A stretch of 46,391 nt of DNA. It comes from Candidatus Hermodarchaeota archaeon. GTDB taxonomy: Archaea > Asgardarchaeota > Lokiarchaeia > Sigyniarchaeales > SOKP01. The first letter of the stretch is position 1. Each line of letters starts with the position of its first letter. The position numbers and the translations under genes are program-made. Location of the stretch: positions 1 through 46,391 of the forward strand of contig JBHLLG010000020.1 of assembly GCA_048885925.1 (NCBI GenBank), in the 5' to 3' direction. The notes under the pieces were generated by a model that was not told the DNA's origin, did no database searches, and saw only the letters and a list, made by a program, of their open reading frames with translations. Positions 196 through 27,317 of the stretch are shown here, piece by piece.

Positions 196-246
196 TTTAA
201 ATAAATAATATATCAAATAATATTTTAATTAACATTTTTTTTAAAT

Positions 247-347
247 GCAACGGTTGCCTAGCCTGGTACGGCGCTGGCTTGGAGTGTTGGTCTTCCCAGA
301 AAGCCAGTGTGTGAATGCACTCGGGGGTTCAAATCCCTCCCGTTGCG
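247..347 (+). tRNA. tRNA-Ser(GGA) with a 17-nt intron at position 37/38
   Basis: Acceptor stem GCAACGG/CCGTTGC with discriminator G; D-arm GCC/GGC; anticodon stem CTGGC/GCCAG with GGA at 281-283; long variable arm GTGT-GAAT-GCAC; T-arm GGGGG-TTCAAAT-CCCTC. CCA is not encoded. Confidence 0.95.
285..301 (+). other. tRNA intron (BHB type, 17 nt)
   Basis: Sequence TGTTGGTCTTCCCAGAA. Central helix TTGG/CCAG with bulges AG|T and AA|A. Removal gives the 7-nt anticodon loop TTGGAGA. Confidence 0.9.
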
Positions 348-366
348 TACTTATAGTTATATATAT

Positions 367-2847: not shown

Positions 2848-3144
2848 TTAGAAAAGGGAACCAATACCTGTTGGTTCTTCTTCTTCAGGTTCTTCTTTCT
2901 TCTTCTTTTTCTTGTCTTCTTTTTTATCCTCAGCAGGACTTGCAACTGGAGTCATTGATACAGGTACTGCACTAGCGGATTTAATTAATTCGTCAATATC
3001 TGTTCCCTTTAATCCAGCAATAAGTTTTGTGATTTCATTTTTATCAATTTTTGCACCTGCGGCGGTTAATACCTTTTCTACACTTGCTTCAGTAATTTTT
3101 TTATCAGCTTTATGTAATAGTAAGGCAGCGTATATATTTTCCAT
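2848..3144 (-). CDS. rpl12: 50S ribosomal stalk protein P1 (L12p/aP1)
   Basis: MENIYAALLLH N-terminus, Ala/Pro hinge, acidic tail ending GIGSLF. Confidence 0.95.
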   Translation of the reverse strand: MENIYAALLLHKADKKITEASVEKVLTAAGAKIDKNEITKLIAGLKGTDIDELIKSASAVPVSMTPVASPAEDKKEDKKKKKKEEPEEEEPTGIGSLF

Positions 3145-3221: not shown

Positions 3222-4115
3222 TTATCCAAATAATCCTCCGATACCAACTTCCTCAGTATCTTCCTCTTTATCTTTTGATTTTTTCTTATCAATTTTAGGT
3301 TCTTCTTTAATAGGAACGTGGATTTTTTCACCATAAATAAATGCATTTAGTATATTAGCTTGAGAAGCAGCTTTTCGAATGTATTCCTCTTTCATATCTT
3401 CAATTAAGAAGGGCATTTCAAAAAGAACTGCTAAAGCTCCTCCATAAGCCTTGGCAAAATCTTGTTTGAACTTATTCATATCCATATATAAGACATCCTC
3501 TGCAATAATTTCACCATTGCTCCAAGCAAAATTAATTTTGATTAATGATTCAATAGGTGTAATTCCTAGTTTTTTCAGAACCGCAGCTTGTTTAACTGTC
3601 ACTAATTCACCAGCTTTATGTGTTCTTGTATCTTCACGGATATGTATTGTATCATTCATTATTCTTGTTGGTAATCGTAAAGTCATGTTTAATTCGCTTA
3701 TAACTTGACCTGTGGGAAGTCCTGTATCTCCTGCTGGAACCCATATATCTACTGAGGTAATCTCATCTGGTTTTGCAGGAACCATCCACTCATTTTCGAG
3801 AAAAATATTTTTTAACTCAAATAAATCTAGATTGGTAAATACTAAACTGGATTGACCTGTTATATGATGTGCAAATTCATCTAGATTTTCCTTCTCCGAT
3901 TCTTTTTTAAATATATCTAGCGCAAGTAGTTGAAGTGATTTTTTTGACATTCTAAATACTGCTTTTCCCCTCAAAATTTTTCTCATACTCTGAAATTGTC
4001 TATCATTTATATTGCCAACTTCGATAACAGCAACATTTTTATTATTTCTAAATAAATCAACTAAAAGATTAACTTCCTCTTCTTTCCATTTAGGGATATG
4101 TTTGCTCTTAATCAA
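3222..4115 (-). CDS. rpl10: 50S ribosomal protein L10 (uL10/P0)
   Basis: Motifs IPKWKEEEV and VPAGDTGLPTG, with a C-terminal GIGGLFG. Start placed at TTG 4115 behind a GAGGTG SD at the end of rpl1; the ORF track start is 4130. Confidence 0.93.
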   Translation of the reverse strand: MIKSKHIPKWKEEEVNLLVDLFRNNKNVAVIEVGNINDRQFQSMRKILRGKAVFRMSKKSLQLLALDIFKKESEKENLDEFAHHITGQSSLVFTNLDLFELKNIFLENEWMVPAKPDEITSVDIWVPAGDTGLPTGQVISELNMTLRLPTRIMNDTIHIREDTRTHKAGELVTVKQAAVLKKLGITPIESLIKINFAWSNGEIIAEDVLYMDMNKFKQDFAKAYGGALAVLFEMPFLIEDMKEEYIRKAASQANILNAFIYGEKIHVPIKEEPKIDKKKSKDKEEDTEEVGIGGLFG

Positions 4116-4119
4116 ATTT

Positions 4120-4848
4120 TTACACCTCAATACCTTTTAGGAATTCTTCTGTTACTTTTACGGGTTTTCCCATTGTAGATTTAAGATACATGGATTTAAA
4201 ATTATTGAATTTATGTGGCATTTTATCGGCAATAAAGTTCACGACGGTCTTCATATTTTCATATAACTTTTCTTTACCCATAGATTTTTTCCCTATCTTA
4301 GCAAAAATTATTGGTTGTTTTTTCATTTGGATTCGAATGACTCTTTTATACCGATCATTTGCTACTTTTAAATCCTCAGGACTAGAAATAATACCGTATC
4401 CTGTAGGGAAAGGTTTTGGCATTTTACCGACAGGACCAAGAAATCTTGCTAAGTATCGAGCAACATCCCTCATCATTTTATCTTCTACTACAAAATATTC
4501 ATATTTTTTAGCAAATTTTTTCTTATATTTTTTCTCTTCATTATTTAATTTAACTAAACCTTCAGAGTCTAGAGTATCAACACCAAGTTTTTTTGCTTCA
4601 AGTAAGATCTCATCTGATGCTATAACACATATATTAGGTGTATTATCGGTGATTATTTCATAGGGTAAGATAATTTCCTGTTCTATTCGGTTTGTTGGAT
4701 CACTTAGATTAATATCCTTGATATTTAATATAAGGTCAATTGATTCATCAAATTTTCTGACCTTATCTTTAAATCCTTCTTTTTTAATCACAGAAAAATT
4801 AATAGCAGTAGCTAAGGATTTCTTTAATAATTTATCATCGACTTTCAC
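4120..4848 (-). CDS. rpl1: 50S ribosomal protein L1 (uL1)
   Basis: Motifs RKFDESIDL, LGPVGKMPKP and YLKSTMGKPV; located in the L11-L1-L10-L12 cluster. Confidence 0.96.
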   Translation of the reverse strand: MKVDDKLLKKSLATAINFSVIKKEGFKDKVRKFDESIDLILNIKDINLSDPTNRIEQEIILPYEIITDNTPNICVIASDEILLEAKKLGVDTLDSEGLVKLNNEEKKYKKKFAKKYEYFVVEDKMMRDVARYLARFLGPVGKMPKPFPTGYGIISSPEDLKVANDRYKRVIRIQMKKQPIIFAKIGKKSMGKEKLYENMKTVVNFIADKMPHKFNNFKSMYLKSTMGKPVKVTEEFLKGIEV

Positions 4849-4854
4849 TTTTTC

Positions 4855-5377
4855 TTAATCACCTCTTACTTTATCAGCATACTCTCCTTCATCTATTCGT
4901 TTCTGAATTATTCTCGGATCTTCTCCTTCTACTGTTAATCCTACCGACAATGCTGTTCCTAAAACAGTTTTAATTGCTGATTTATATGTTTTATCTAAGA
5001 ACTTCTCTCTTTTGGCATCAACTACATTTTTAATTTGTTCAAGTGTTAAATCTCCTATTTTTTGCTCTGAACATGAAGAACTACCTTTCTCTACACCTGC
5101 TTCTGCGAGTAATAGTGAAGCAGTTGCAGGAGTTTCAATAAAAATTTCAAATTCTTTTGTTTCTGGATCGCATTCAATTCTAACTGGAACTGTCAAACCC
5201 CTGAAGATTTGAGTTTGTTTGTTAACCTCGTCGACCACATCCTTAATGTCTACATGGAAAATCGAATTGATTTTCGTTTATGCCAGTTGGTCCAACTGCA
5301 GGTCCGATGGGCGGTCCTCCTGATGCACTTCCTCCGGTTACGAGAGCTTTTACAATAATTTTCCCTTTTTTACTCAC
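4855..5377 (-). CDS. rpl11: 50S ribosomal protein L11 (uL11), two exons: 5377-5278 joined to 5249-4855, 164 aa
   Basis: GTG start at 5377 with a GGTGA SD upstream. Exon 1 encodes MSKKGKIIVKALVTGGSASGGPPIGPAVGPTGI, the conserved L11 N-terminus. Removing 28 nt gives ...GPTGINIKDVVDEVNKQT... in frame with the 127-aa ORF. Confidence 0.92.
5250..5277 (-). other. Putative BHB pre-mRNA intron in rpl11 (28 nt)
   Basis: mRNA strand: UG-GCAU-AA|A-C-GAAAAUC-AAUUC-GAUUUUC-C-AUGU-AG|A-CA. It has a 4-bp central helix and two 3-nt bulges. Cuts after the 2nd bulge nucleotide restore the frame. Confidence 0.85.
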
Positions 5378-5824: not shown

Positions 5825-6508
5825 TTAGTTCTCTCCTTCTAAGATCACTTTATGCGTAATTTTACCAATCTTTTCTATGCTAGCTTCAATAGTATCTCCT
5901 GGTTGAATTGGCCCTACTCCGCTTGGTGTTCCAGTAGCAACAATATCTCCAGGTAATAACGTGATAAATTTAGAAAGATATGCTAAAATATCTGGAATTT
6001 TAAAAATCATATGTTTTGTATTTGACAGTTGACGAATTTCGCTGTTAAGCTTTAACTGAATGTTTAAATTATGAGGATCTTCTATTTCACTTAAAGGTAC
6101 TATGCGTGGTCCAATAGGACCAAAACTGTCGAAATTTTTACTTCTATACCAGGGTAAATTGATATTTCTATCATTGATCTGCATTTTCCTAGCAGTTATG
6201 TCAAGGAAAATAGAATAACCTTCTATATATTCATAGCTTTGTTCTATGCTAACATTTTTACAAACCCGAGAAACTATAAAAGCTAATTCTACTTCATGAT
6301 CTACATGATTATATTCTGGATTATTGTATAGAATTTTTGGATATATTATTGGATTCCCATTAGTTACCAAAGTATTTGTTGTTTTTGCAAAAAATACTGG
6401 ATTTTCAGGTATCTGTGCTTTCATTTCCTTTGCATGATCTATATAATTTCTCCCTAAACAAATTATTTTAGTTGGTTCTATTAATCTATTTCCTATTTTA
6501 AAAATCAT
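5825..6508 (-). CDS. Fumarylacetoacetate hydrolase family protein
   Basis: Motifs KIICLGRNYIDH, DHEVELA, DITARK.Q, RSKNFDSFGPIGP and PGDIVATGTPSGVG. Confidence 0.93.
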   Translation of the reverse strand: MIFKIGNRLIEPTKIICLGRNYIDHAKEMKAQIPENPVFFAKTTNTLVTNGNPIIYPKILYNNPEYNHVDHEVELAFIVSRVCKNVSIEQSYEYIEGYSIFLDITARKMQINDRNINLPWYRSKNFDSFGPIGPRIVPLSEIEDPHNLNIQLKLNSEIRQLSNTKHMIFKIPDILAYLSKFITLLPGDIVATGTPSGVGPIQPGDTIEASIEKIGKITHKVILEGEN

Positions 6509-6511
6509 AAA

Positions 6512-7186
6512 TTATTCACCTTCTAAAACAACCTTATTTGTGAGGGTTCCTATTTTTTCAATTGTGGCTTCAATAATATCACCTGGTACTATTGGACCTA
6601 TTCCACTAGGTGTGCCTGATGCAACTATATCTCCAGGTTCAAGAGTAAAAAAAGTTGAAATATACTCTATCAATTTGGGGATTTTAAATAATAAATGTTT
6701 AGTATTAGATGATTGTTTAATTTCTCCATTCAGCTTTAAATTAATATTTAAATTATGCGGATCTTTAATCTCATCTGTATTAACTAGTCTTGGTCCTATC
6801 GGTCCGAAAGTATCAAAGGATTTAGAACGAAACCATGGTAATTTAGATACGATGTCTTTTGCTTGCATTTTTCTCGCTGTAACATCATTAAACACAGTAT
6901 ATCCAAGAATATGATTGTATGCTTCTTCTTTTTGAATGTATTTACACTTATCTTTTATGATAAATGCCAATTCAACTTCATAATCAACTCTATTATATTT
7001 TCGATTGCTATAAAGAAATTTTGGATATATAATAGGTTCATAATTTGAAATTAAACAATTCAATGTTTTTGGGAATATAACAGGTTCTTTTGGAACAGGT
7101 AATTTAGTTTCCTCAATATGATCCATATAATTCGTTCCTACACATATTATTTTAGTAGGAGTGATTTTATGAGTTCCGAGTTTCAT
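6512..7186 (-). CDS. Fumarylacetoacetate hydrolase family protein (tandem paralog)
   Basis: Motifs KIICVGTNYMDH, DYEVELA, NDVTARK, SKSFDTFGPIGP and PGDIVASGTPSGIG. Confidence 0.93.
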   Translation of the reverse strand: MKLGTHKITPTKIICVGTNYMDHIEETKLPVPKEPVIFPKTLNCLISNYEPIIYPKFLYSNRKYNRVDYEVELAFIIKDKCKYIQKEEAYNHILGYTVFNDVTARKMQAKDIVSKLPWFRSKSFDTFGPIGPRLVNTDEIKDPHNLNINLKLNGEIKQSSNTKHLLFKIPKLIEYISTFFTLEPGDIVASGTPSGIGPIVPGDIIEATIEKIGTLTNKVVLEGE

Positions 7187-25499: not shown

Positions 25500-27317
25500 A
25501 TGGCTAAGCATACCGGTGGAGAAATAATCACTAAGTATTTAATAAAAGAGGGTGTAAAATATGTTGTTGGAATTCCTGGGCATGGGAATCTCCCCCTTGT
25601 CGATGCATTTTACAAGGATAAGGACAAGATTCAATTAATTCAACCTAAAACTGAAAATGCTGGAATTCATTTTTCAGTAGGATATTACCGAATTACAGGA
25701 CAACCGCTATGTGTTTTTACTTCAATTGGTCCAGGTGCAATGAATACAGCAATAGGATTAGCAGATGCTTATGTAGATAGTTTTCCTGTTCTATGTTTGA
25801 CTGGAAGTACTCACATTCATATGCGTGGGAAAGGAGTTCTTCAAGAGATTGAGAGAAAAAGAGATTCTGATATGCATCGTGTTCTAGAACCTATAGTTAA
25901 ACGGAGTTGGCAGGTAAATTCTGTGAGCCAATTACCCATGATAATGCAAAGAGCATTTAATCTAATGTTGACAGGACGAAGAGGACCTGTAGTAATAGAT
26001 CTTCCTATGGATGTACAAGCAAATTCTATAGAAGTAGAAATTCCAGAACCATTAGAGAGAAGATCAATTGGACGTATCAGGGGTGATCCTGAGAATATTG
26101 AAAAAGCTGCAGAATTAATTAAAAACTCAAAAAGACCTGTTTTATTTATAGGTGGGGGAGCAATTTCTTCGCAAGCAAGTGAGGAAATTAAAGAATTAGC
26201 AGAAAAAGTAGGTGCAGCAGTAGTAGTTACGATGATGGGGAAAGATATTATCGATAATTCTCATCCACTTTATTGTTGGTCGGCAGGTTCCAAAGGTACG
26301 ACTGTCGGATTAAAAATGACTTCAAATGCAGACGTTATTTTGGCAGTTGGTTGTAGATTTGCTGATGAAACAGCGAGTTCATATAAATATGGAGTAAGTT
26401 TTTCGATACCACCTACAAAATTAATACATATAGATATAGATCCTCAAGAAATAGGTAAAAATTATCCTGTTTCTGTAGGAATAGTCGGAGATGCTAAAGC
26501 TTGTTTAATCCAGATTATAGAAAAATTAGGAGATTATTCAAGAGATTATAAGAATTCTGATTACTTTAAAGAAATCCAAGAAGAGAAAGATAAATGGTTT
26601 AAATTTCTTGATGAAAATCGAGATGATTCAAAAATTCCAGTCATGATCTCTACAGTTTTAAGAGAGGTAAGAAATTTTTTTGACAGAGATGCTGTAATTG
26701 TGACTAGCTCGGGAAATGTACAGGCTCAAATGCTACAAGAATTAGCATTTTACGAATCAAATACATGTCTTACAGCTGGGGGATTTTCAACGATGGGTTA
26801 CAGTGTTCCAGCTGCTATAGGAGCCAAATTAGGTTCAATAGATATTGGAAAACCAGATAGACAAGTTGTTGCACTGGTGGGAGATGGAGATTTTATGATG
26901 ACGATATCTGAATTAACATTGGCAGTACAGCTTGGTTTGGATAACATATTTTTTGTAATTCTAAATAATCATGGGTGGATTGCAATTAAGGATTTACAGC
27001 AAGCAGCTTTTGGGGAAGATCGGGGTTATGGTACAGCTTTTGAAGACAAAAATGGAAAAACATATTCTCCTGATTTCGCTAAAATTGGTGAAGCATTTGG
27101 CTGTTATTCTGAAAAAATTTCTAGAAAAGAAGAGATAATTCCCGCATTTGAAAGAGCCGTTAAATCGAGGAAACCTTCTGTAATAGAAATTGAAGTTCAA
27201 AGAGAATATCCCTTTACTGGTTCTCCTGCAGTAGGCTGGTGGGATGTTCCGCGCCCCGAGTATCTTACAGAACAAAGAAAGAAATATGAGGATGAAATCA
27301 AGGGAGAAAAACTTTAA
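25500..27317 (+). CDS. Thiamine-pyrophosphate-dependent enzyme, acetolactate synthase large-subunit family
   Basis: Motifs GIPGHG, TSIGPGA.N, GPVVIDLPMDVQ, MGYSVPAAIGAK and GDGDF...NN. Substrate uncertain. Confidence 0.88.
   Translation: MAKHTGGEIITKYLIKEGVKYVVGIPGHGNLPLVDAFYKDKDKIQLIQPKTENAGIHFSVGYYRITGQPLCVFTSIGPGAMNTAIGLADAYVDSFPVLCLTGSTHIHMRGKGVLQEIERKRDSDMHRVLEPIVKRSWQVNSVSQLPMIMQRAFNLMLTGRRGPVVIDLPMDVQANSIEVEIPEPLERRSIGRIRGDPENIEKAAELIKNSKRPVLFIGGGAISSQASEEIKELAEKVGAAVVVTMMGKDIIDNSHPLYCWSAGSKGTTVGLKMTSNADVILAVGCRFADETASSYKYGVSFSIPPTKLIHIDIDPQEIGKNYPVSVGIVGDAKACLIQIIEKLGDYSRDYKNSDYFKEIQEEKDKWFKFLDENRDDSKIPVMISTVLREVRNFFDRDAVIVTSSGNVQAQMLQELAFYESNTCLTAGGFSTMGYSVPAAIGAKLGSIDIGKPDRQVVALVGDGDFMMTISELTLAVQLGLDNIFFVILNNHGWIAIKDLQQAAFGEDRGYGTAFEDKNGKTYSPDFAKIGEAFGCYSEKISRKEEIIPAFERAVKSRKPSVIEIEVQREYPFTGSPAVGWWDVPRPEYLTEQRKKYEDEIKGEKL

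Follow-up and report, generated by a model that had tools for sequence, protein, structure and literature searches.

Predicted EndA-type bulge-helix-bulge mini-introns in the uL11 gene and other protein-coding genes of an Asgard archaeal family

Introduction

Splicing of bulge-helix-bulge (BHB) introns from pre-mRNA has been confirmed for no gene but the crenarchaeal cbf5 and is predicted elsewhere, according to PMC2738675. As described there, the cbf5 intron of the Crenarchaeota (Desulfurococcales and Sulfolobales) places a BHB motif in a protein-coding gene, is thought to be removed by the tRNA-splicing endonuclease EndA, and shows a patchy pattern of gain and loss (PMC2738675). Here we report an insert of 28 nucleotides (nt) that resembles the cbf5 intron in these respects and that interrupts the gene for ribosomal protein uL11 in Candidatus Hermodarchaeota archaeon, a member of the Promethearchaeota, a phylum in the Asgard kingdom Promethearchaeati. 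The insert lies at 5277..5250 on the minus strand of a 46,391-nt stretch of DNA (contig JBHLLG010000020.1 of assembly GCA_048885925.1), hereafter the window. The case differs from cbf5 in its lineage and in its host gene, uL11 being the first gene of the stalk operon. It differs also in that up to three introns occur per gene, four sites lie within about 100 nt and at least seven genes are interrupted in one genome, and in that splicing is here predicted.

Between 92 and 95% of tRNA genes are interrupted in three Asgard genomes, according to PMC11291895, and a preprint (10.64898/2026.10.13.758758) describes repeated gains of Asgard tRNA introns and, for 44 of 60 genomes, a pair of EndA paralogues. 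The uL11 insert resembles the non-canonical tRNA introns of Asgard archaea in that it displays the same motif, would use the same enzymes and occurs in an intron-laden lineage. Those reports concern tRNA genes, whereas the uL11 insert lies in a protein-coding gene. In a literature search, with subscription journals and supplementary files outside its scope, no account of BHB introns turned up for uL11 or for any Asgard protein-coding gene.

Translational bypassing, as in gene 60 of phage T4, requires matched take-off and landing codons, and the insert is retained in the mRNA. The uL11 insert is likewise a short, untranslated hairpin insert in a coding sequence, but it lacks matched codons and its conserved features are those of a BHB motif. 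In the splicing of the HAC1 and XBP1 mRNAs, the endonuclease IRE1 recognises two stem-loops, and the reaction acts as a regulated stress switch. The reaction predicted for uL11 would share with HAC1/XBP1 splicing a protein-only endonuclease with RtcB-type ligation, a small mRNA intron and a change of frame; it differs in that the uL11 motif is a BHB, whereas HAC1/XBP1 splicing relies on IRE1 and two stem-loops and is regulated. Work on RtcB in HAC1 splicing is cited in the reference list of PMC5829648.

Results

The uL11 coding sequence

The genome under study, labelled G000, is a 3.9-megabase (Mb) assembly of 181 contigs and is 95% complete. G021 denotes a congener with an intact uL11 gene, and coordinates are minus-strand positions within the window unless a contig is given. 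A search of G000 located a single uL11 gene, that of the window, which heads a cluster in the order uL11-uL1-uL10(P0)-P1, followed by a SecY-like gene. An upstream open reading frame (ORF) at 5377..5243 starts with GTG and encodes 44 amino acids that end in ...GINENQFDFPCRH before the stop codon, and the remainder of uL11 runs from 5247 down to 4855 in a different frame from the N-terminal piece. Pfam Ribosomal_L11_N matched the piece 5377..5278 at profile positions 1-25 and the piece from 5247 at positions 27-58, one frame apart; Pfam Ribosomal_L11, the RNA-binding domain, matched the second piece at positions 2-69. Because the two halves of Ribosomal_L11_N fall on two pieces in this way, the 28 nt at 5277..5250 represent extra sequence that splits the uL11 coding sequence.

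Exon 1 (5278..5377) comprises 33 codons from the GTG start and the first base of a split Asn codon, and exon 2 (4855..5249) comprises the last two bases of that codon, 130 codons and the stop. When the sequence was cut in silico after the second base of each bulge of the predicted BHB motif, a 495-nt frame encoding a 164-amino acid uL11 was obtained. Alignment of this protein with intact G021 uL11 gave identity in 135 of 165 columns, with a gap at the terminus only and none internally. The uL11 exons shared 71-85% protein identity with congeners and carried no further defect.

Anatomy of the insert

The uL11 transcript is predicted to fold so that the exonic strand GCAU (5283..5280) pairs with the intronic strand AUGU (5255..5252), one G.U pair included, and this 4-base pair (bp) central helix would lie between two 3-nt bulges on opposite strands, flanked by a 7-bp intronic hairpin and a short helix between the exons. 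The 5' bulge is AAA (5279..5277), which was invariant in 13 congeners, and the 3' bulge, read from the sequence and the congener alignment, is AGA (5251..5249). EndA would cut after the second base of each bulge, that is, between 5278 and 5277 and between 5250 and 5249, and ligation of the exons by RtcB would create the codon AAC and open the 164-codon uL11 frame; the unspliced RNA would yield the 44-amino acid fragment only. The inner helix and loop occupy 5276..5256 and consist, as judged from the fold and from relatives, of a C.C mismatch at the base (5276/5256), the stem GAAAAUC/GAUUUUC (5275..5269 with 5263..5257) and the loop AAUUC (5268..5264). On the outer side, CA at 5248..5247 pairs with UG at 5285..5284 for 2 bp only, a helix in which 79.5% of cells were paired in relatives. 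Relative to the strict hBHBh' form, then, the inner helix is 7 bp past the C.C mismatch and the outer helix is 2 bp in G000, and with so short an outer helix the predicted motif is of the relaxed type.

The minimum free energy structure computed by RNAfold for 5295..5235 contained both the central helix and the hairpin. A BHB score was defined as the number of pairs formed out of 13 (4 central, 3 outer and 6 inner) at the junction that the orthologous protein dictates. At the uL11 junction, which is fixed by the protein, 11 of the 13 pairs form; among 200,000 random placements, each scored as the best of 3 shifts, 0.4% reached 11. Only two placements combined a complete central helix (4/4) with an open frame, and of these the 28-nt one gives GPTGINIKDVVDE as in the orthologues and has much better helices. 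A self-splicing group I or group II intron, or another Rfam family, was rejected as an identity for the insert, since its 28 nt compare with a core of hundreds of nt in such introns and Rfam at gathering thresholds gave no match across the whole window.

The initial annotation of the window, made from the letters alone, had placed a 28-nt BHB intron at 5250-5277 in uL11, with a GCAU/AUGU helix, AAA and AGA bulges, a GAAAAUC/GAUUUUC hairpin and a C-C mismatch. All of these elements were recovered base for base, on the minus strand. Its 44-amino acid unspliced product corresponds to the ORF at 5377..5243, its application of the EndA rule to yield a full 164-amino acid uL11 agrees with the 495-nt frame that aligns without internal gaps to G021 uL11, and its placement of uL11 as the first stalk-operon gene fits the observed order uL11-uL1-uL10-P1.

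Inserts in the uL11 genes of relatives

The genus was represented by 53 species genomes, of which 51 matched the C-terminal part of uL11 (C-part) and 49 (23 + 26) had a readable N-terminal region; two loci cut by contig ends and two genomes without a match were left out. The uL11 gene was uninterrupted in 25 of these 49 congeners and carried at least one insert in the other 24. A 28-nt insert at exactly the G000 position, designated site C, was present in 13 of the 49, and alignment to intron-less congeners gave the clean 28-nt gap that the initial annotation had predicted. Two further sites were found. Site A, further upstream, held a 36- or 37-nt insert in nine of the 49 congeners, and site B, between A and C, held a 35- or 36-nt insert in nine; one species had 31 nt at site B, with an unrelated hairpin and a canonical motif. 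Sites A and B were occupied together in three species, and G005 and G044 carried inserts at A, B and C, separated by exons of 22 and 28 nt. The inserts at sites A and B contain stop codons, the frames that flank them are intact, and from one species to another the inserts vary in length by a single nucleotide (36/37 and 35/36 nt). Together, this variation in length, the stop codons and the intervening exons of 22 and 28 nt indicate that the uL11 inserts cannot be translated. The genes uL1 and uL10 were uninterrupted at every locus examined.

The distribution was extended to a class-wide sample, in which 150 genomes were searched and the open-frame length of the uL11 C-part served as a proxy for interruption. 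Shortened frames were confined to the window's own family. Outside the family, 22 of 23 matches had a frame of at least 162 amino acids, the remaining one being a partial match, and all seven loci that were checked directly were contiguous. In other genera of the family, all 20 uL11 loci, which had been picked for their short frames, carried inserts of 28-39 nt at sites A, B, C or D. Site D, the fourth, falls at the Val codon of PAVGP in five genomes of one other genus (g16). In relatives, the first ~35 codons of uL11 contain sites A, B and D, and up to three introns occur in one gene. Example loci with extra sites are L017 (G005), L046 (G044), L216 (G101), and L211 and L213-L215 (genus g16). 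The uL11 insert of G000 would thus belong to a population of 28-39-nt BHB introns at four uL11 N-terminal sites in one Promethearchaeota family.

A tree was built from uL11 (C-part), uL1 and uL10 (27 rows, 629 columns), three linked genes analysed with a short search. Among 23 genus genomes it required at least six changes of state at site C, three at site A and two at site B, and strongly supported sister pairs differed in intron content. The tree shows turnover and not the direction of change, and the predicted uL11 introns appear from it to turn over fast among species.

Occurrence of the insert in independent DNA

A 250-nt contig from a DNA run of another study spans 5122-5371 of the window, ungapped and with three substitutions. 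In this independent sediment run (X11) the intron-bearing allele is substituted at 5276, in the mismatched hairpin base. The run also contains an intron-less relative, and the contig of that relative departs from the window sequence precisely where the intron begins or ends. Because the same insert is present in 13 congener assemblies and in an independent DNA run, assembly error is excluded as its source.

These data bear on the proposal that uL11 is simply broken in G000, whether as a pseudogene, as an assembly error or as a split gene whose 44- and 127-amino acid products cooperate. The frame is indeed interrupted as annotated, and a downstream ORF of 127 amino acids starts with GTG at 5238. 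However, no second uL11 copy was found in G000, and the same insert is present in 13 assemblies and in the independent DNA run. The exons are conserved and free of further lesions. A split gene would be broken within its compact N-terminal domain (Pfam profile positions 25-27 of 58), and in the three-insert genomes the exons of 22 and 28 nt are impossible as separate proteins. We consider a broken gene extremely unlikely, and the data favour an intact gene with a removable insert.

Conservation and covariation of the structure

In a MAFFT alignment of the 13 genus copies of site C (12 distinct), 92.9% of cells were paired according to the proposed structure, compared with 24-45% when the 3' partners were slid. 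In this 12-copy alignment, which is independent of any model, two pairs were changed on both sides. A wider set was assembled by adding 10 copies from other genera aligned to a covariance model, for a total of 23 sequences (22 distinct) from three genera. Among the 22 distinct copies, 92.5% of cells were paired, and the central helix was paired in every copy (100% of its cells). Seven of the 14 pairs were changed on both sides (17 cells), values that none of 500 shuffles reached, and the compensatory changes fell on seven of the eight inner pairs. Conserved pairing extended to the other sites: the central helix UGGG/CCCR of site A was fully paired (4/4) in nine of nine copies, and site B had an outer helix GGRCC/GGYCC of 5-6 bp and a central helix of 3-4 pairs.

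When the site-C covariance model was run against the 53 genomes, only the 13 uL11 sites were recovered, at 60-73 bits (66 bits for the G000 insert); the next best match scored 24 bits. Since the model is restricted to these 13 sites, the site-C intron is an orthologous single-locus feature and not a repeat. A dispersed mobile element was likewise rejected, as the model found only the 13 uL11 sites and a blastn-short search of the G000 genome with its seven introns (see below) gave full-length matches to themselves only.

Other interrupted protein genes

The stop-to-stop ORFs of 2.0 Mb of G021 were compared with the whole G000 genome by tblastn. About 1,676 G021 ORFs of at least 100 amino acids had a match that covered half or more of the ORF at 50% identity or higher. 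Three kinds of artefact were removed: antisense shadow ORFs, tRNA genes with differing introns (C24:7465-7673 and C1:234721-234825) and alignments of 5' untranslated regions near N-termini. There remained seven genes that were interrupted in G000 and intact in G021, roughly 0.4% of comparable genes (7 of about 1,700). Their identities were assigned from Pfam matches of the intact G021 orthologues. Besides uL11 (C20:5250-5277, minus strand, 28 nt), they were RNA polymerase subunit N (RpoN; C96:9379-9409, minus strand, 31 nt), a JAB/MPN protein (C15:18539-18569, minus strand, 31 nt, within the JAMM motif), a Prismane/carbon monoxide dehydrogenase (CODH)-family protein (C4:38336-38367, plus strand, 32 nt, with a canonical BHB and helices of 6, 4 and 8 bp), CdhD (C17:26531-26566, plus strand, 36 nt, in frame with two stops), a Ras-family GTPase (C12:62467-62497, minus strand, 31 nt) and UPP synthase (C37:24652-24681, plus strand, 30 nt, in frame with one stop, within DGNRRWA). 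The interrupted genes cover the ribosome, RNA polymerase and the CODH/acetyl-CoA synthase (ACS) pathway, and the inserts often fall in the most conserved motifs.

The BHB scores of the seven inserts, in the order given, were 11, 11, 12, 13, 9, 11 and 12 of 13, compared with 6.5 +/- 1.5 for random placements, and six of the seven were within the top 0.4% of random placements. The EndA cutting rule, applied in silico, gave the right junction in all seven genes. The JAB intron was present in eight of the 53 genus genomes at a length of 29 or 31 nt, and its central helices covaried (GGCU/AGCU, GACU/AGUU and GGUU/AACU). The RpoN intron was present in 10 of the 47 genomes with a match; the cutting rule restored the Val-Ser of the intact gene in all five relatives aligned, and in G000 the last base of exon 1 differs, which gives Gly. 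On this comparative evidence at least six other protein genes of G000 appear to hold the same kind of insert, and uL11 would not be an isolated case.

A reverse comparison of G000 ORFs with 1.2 Mb of G021 revealed in G021 a single in-frame insert, 30 nt long and containing a stop. It lies at G021:C1 ~335,800-335,830 (minus strand), between ...PMH and NWGKD... of a gene that is intact in G000; its hairpin is 9 bp long and its central helix forms 3/4 pairs. A second insert in CdhD (G000:C17 ~26390-26420, plus strand) was rejected as a candidate. It is 30 nt long, in frame and free of stops, adds 10 residues relative to G021, and has no BHB solution; it is probably ordinary protein variation. A de novo scan of G000 for BHB geometry combined with ORF fusion returned 161,594 structural candidates, of which 3,815 fused ORFs, compared with 3,359-3,853 at cuts shifted by 1-4 nt; there was no excess over shifted cuts in any length class, and the scan was too permissive to inform. 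The RpoN and CODH-family introns share an exact 12-mer (G000:C96:9401 and G000:C4:38351) that occurs nowhere else in the genome. About two occurrences are expected genome-wide from composition; the match may reflect common origin or chance. An 816-nt same-frame insertion at G021:C1 ~894,000-895,200, relative to the G000:C24 ORF at 22708, may represent a mobile element, an intein or an additional domain.

The seven genes are also informative about ribosomal bypassing or programmed frameshifting, in which the insert would stay in the mRNA and the ribosome would hop over it as in phage T4 gene 60. A 28-nt insert with a hairpin and a stop 10 codons downstream superficially resembles a bypass cassette, and the RNA data are compatible with an unspliced uL11 mRNA. 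However, the 5' side offers AUA or AAC as a take-off codon and neither is found in frame on the 3' side, so that matched codons are lacking. Frameshifting cannot rescue in-frame inserts with stops, such as the 36-nt insert at uL11 site A, the 36-nt insert of CdhD with its two stops and the 30-nt insert of UPP synthase. Nor would a ribosomal mechanism need a conserved, covarying 4-bp helix with two 3-nt bulges at the junctions, and three such events within 100 nt (G005 and G044) would be very inefficient for an abundant ribosomal protein. Retention of the insert with ribosomal bypass or frameshifting is therefore judged very unlikely, and removal from the RNA is preferred.

Splicing machinery and tRNA introns

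The G000 genome encodes an EndA with N-terminal and catalytic domains (C22:7600-8217) and an RtcB (C12:26362-27669). Two EndA paralogues were present in five of five congeners (the second paralogue of G021 is at C1:2000931-2001173). Asgard EndA is described as a two-subunit type with an L1 loop, and non-canonical introns are cleaved only by the two-subunit and epsilon2 types of EndA, according to PMC5829648. When intron search was enabled, ARAGORN reported 31 tRNAs in G000, of which 19 contained introns. Within the window, a tRNA-Ser(GGA) with a 17-nt intron was found at 246-348 (plus strand), only by ARAGORN with introns allowed; default ARAGORN and Rfam at gathering score reported no tRNA in the window.

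In principle, different enzymes could remove the insert in place of EndA and RtcB, such as some other structure-specific nuclease paired with a ligase. Cleavage of the insert by EndA is a prediction, a single EndA paralogue was found in G000, and the motif is relaxed in some copies: uL11 site B, RpoN and UPP synthase form three of the four central pairs. On the other side, the geometry is exactly that of an EndA substrate and the EndA rule predicted the correct junction in seven of seven genes. An EndA gene and RtcB are present, and many tRNA introns of the lineage already depend on this pathway. The involvement of other enzymes thus seems quite improbable, and EndA with RtcB are the favoured agents of removal.

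Neighbouring genes

Downstream of uL11 in the stalk cluster lie the uninterrupted uL1 gene, the next gene of the operon (4120..4848, minus strand; Pfam Ribosomal_L1, with a single tblastn match at each locus examined), and the uninterrupted uL10/P0 gene (3222..4130, minus strand; Pfam Ribosomal_L10 and RL10P_insert). The last gene of the cluster (2848..3144, minus strand), taken from the ORF listing, encodes an acidic stalk protein (P1/aL12-like) that was assigned by sequence character only. Two tandem paralogous genes of the FAA-hydrolase family (5825-6508 and 6512-7186, minus strand; Pfam match for the first) lie directly upstream of the uL11 operon region.

Discussion

The results support the interpretation, to which we assign a probability of roughly 85%, that the 28 nt at 5277..5250 are a genuine EndA-type BHB intron in the pre-mRNA of the sole uL11 gene of G000. 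Cleavage and ligation are what we infer from the anatomy of the insert, its conservation and covariation, the restored orthologous sequence and the presence of EndA and RtcB genes. The BHB intron proposed in the initial annotation held in every test run, among them orthologous inserts, covariation and the cut rule, and an EndA gene and RtcB are present.

Several observations weigh against this interpretation. The folding energy of 5295..5235 was unremarkable (z = 0.33), with 122 of 200 shuffles folding at least equally well; the relevant measure of departure from chance is the BHB score at the junction and not folding energy. The G000 motif is slightly degraded, with a G.U pair in the central helix, the C.C mismatch at the hairpin base and the 2-bp outer helix, and it would therefore need an endonuclease that tolerates relaxed motifs. 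A second EndA paralogue was not found in the G000 assembly by Pfam at E <= 10, by tblastn with the first paralogue or by tblastn with the second paralogue of G021, which probably reflects an assembly gap in a 95%-complete genome. Covariation was assessed on an alignment of 23 sequences that had been fitted to the structure of the model itself and so leans toward that structure, and the relatives in it are not independent samples. Finally, the uL11 junction was not covered by RNA: of three RNA runs, one gave a matching metatranscriptome contig (4940-5206) that stops short of the junction, and two gave none.

Beyond the uL11 gene of G000, the evidence leans towards a whole Promethearchaeota family in which protein-coding genes have been colonised by EndA-type mini-introns with fast turnover at the species level. 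The comparative evidence, which is of unusual clarity, implicates this mechanism in an essential gene for a ribosomal protein, in six more genes of the same genome and in four uL11 sites across the family. The lineage ranks among the nearest to eukaryotes, and its tRNA genes are already known to be rich in introns. Gene callers will mis-annotate such genes as frameshifted, truncated or split, and this mis-annotation touches phylogenomic marker sets (uL11 and RpoN) as well as metabolic reconstructions (CODH and CdhD). Intron-less and intron-bearing sister species provide a natural system for the study of BHB intron gain and loss in coding sequence, and with them one can also ask which exon sequences allow insertion and whether there is competition between splicing and coupled translation.

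Essential mRNAs of G000 apparently need splicing. If protein-coding genes have been colonised across the family, these relatives of eukaryotes would routinely depend on the tRNA-splicing machinery to process mRNA, as an essential part of expressing their genes. Splicing may couple ribosome synthesis to tRNA-processing capacity, and expression of both the translation and the transcription apparatus might be gated by the capacity of EndA and RtcB.

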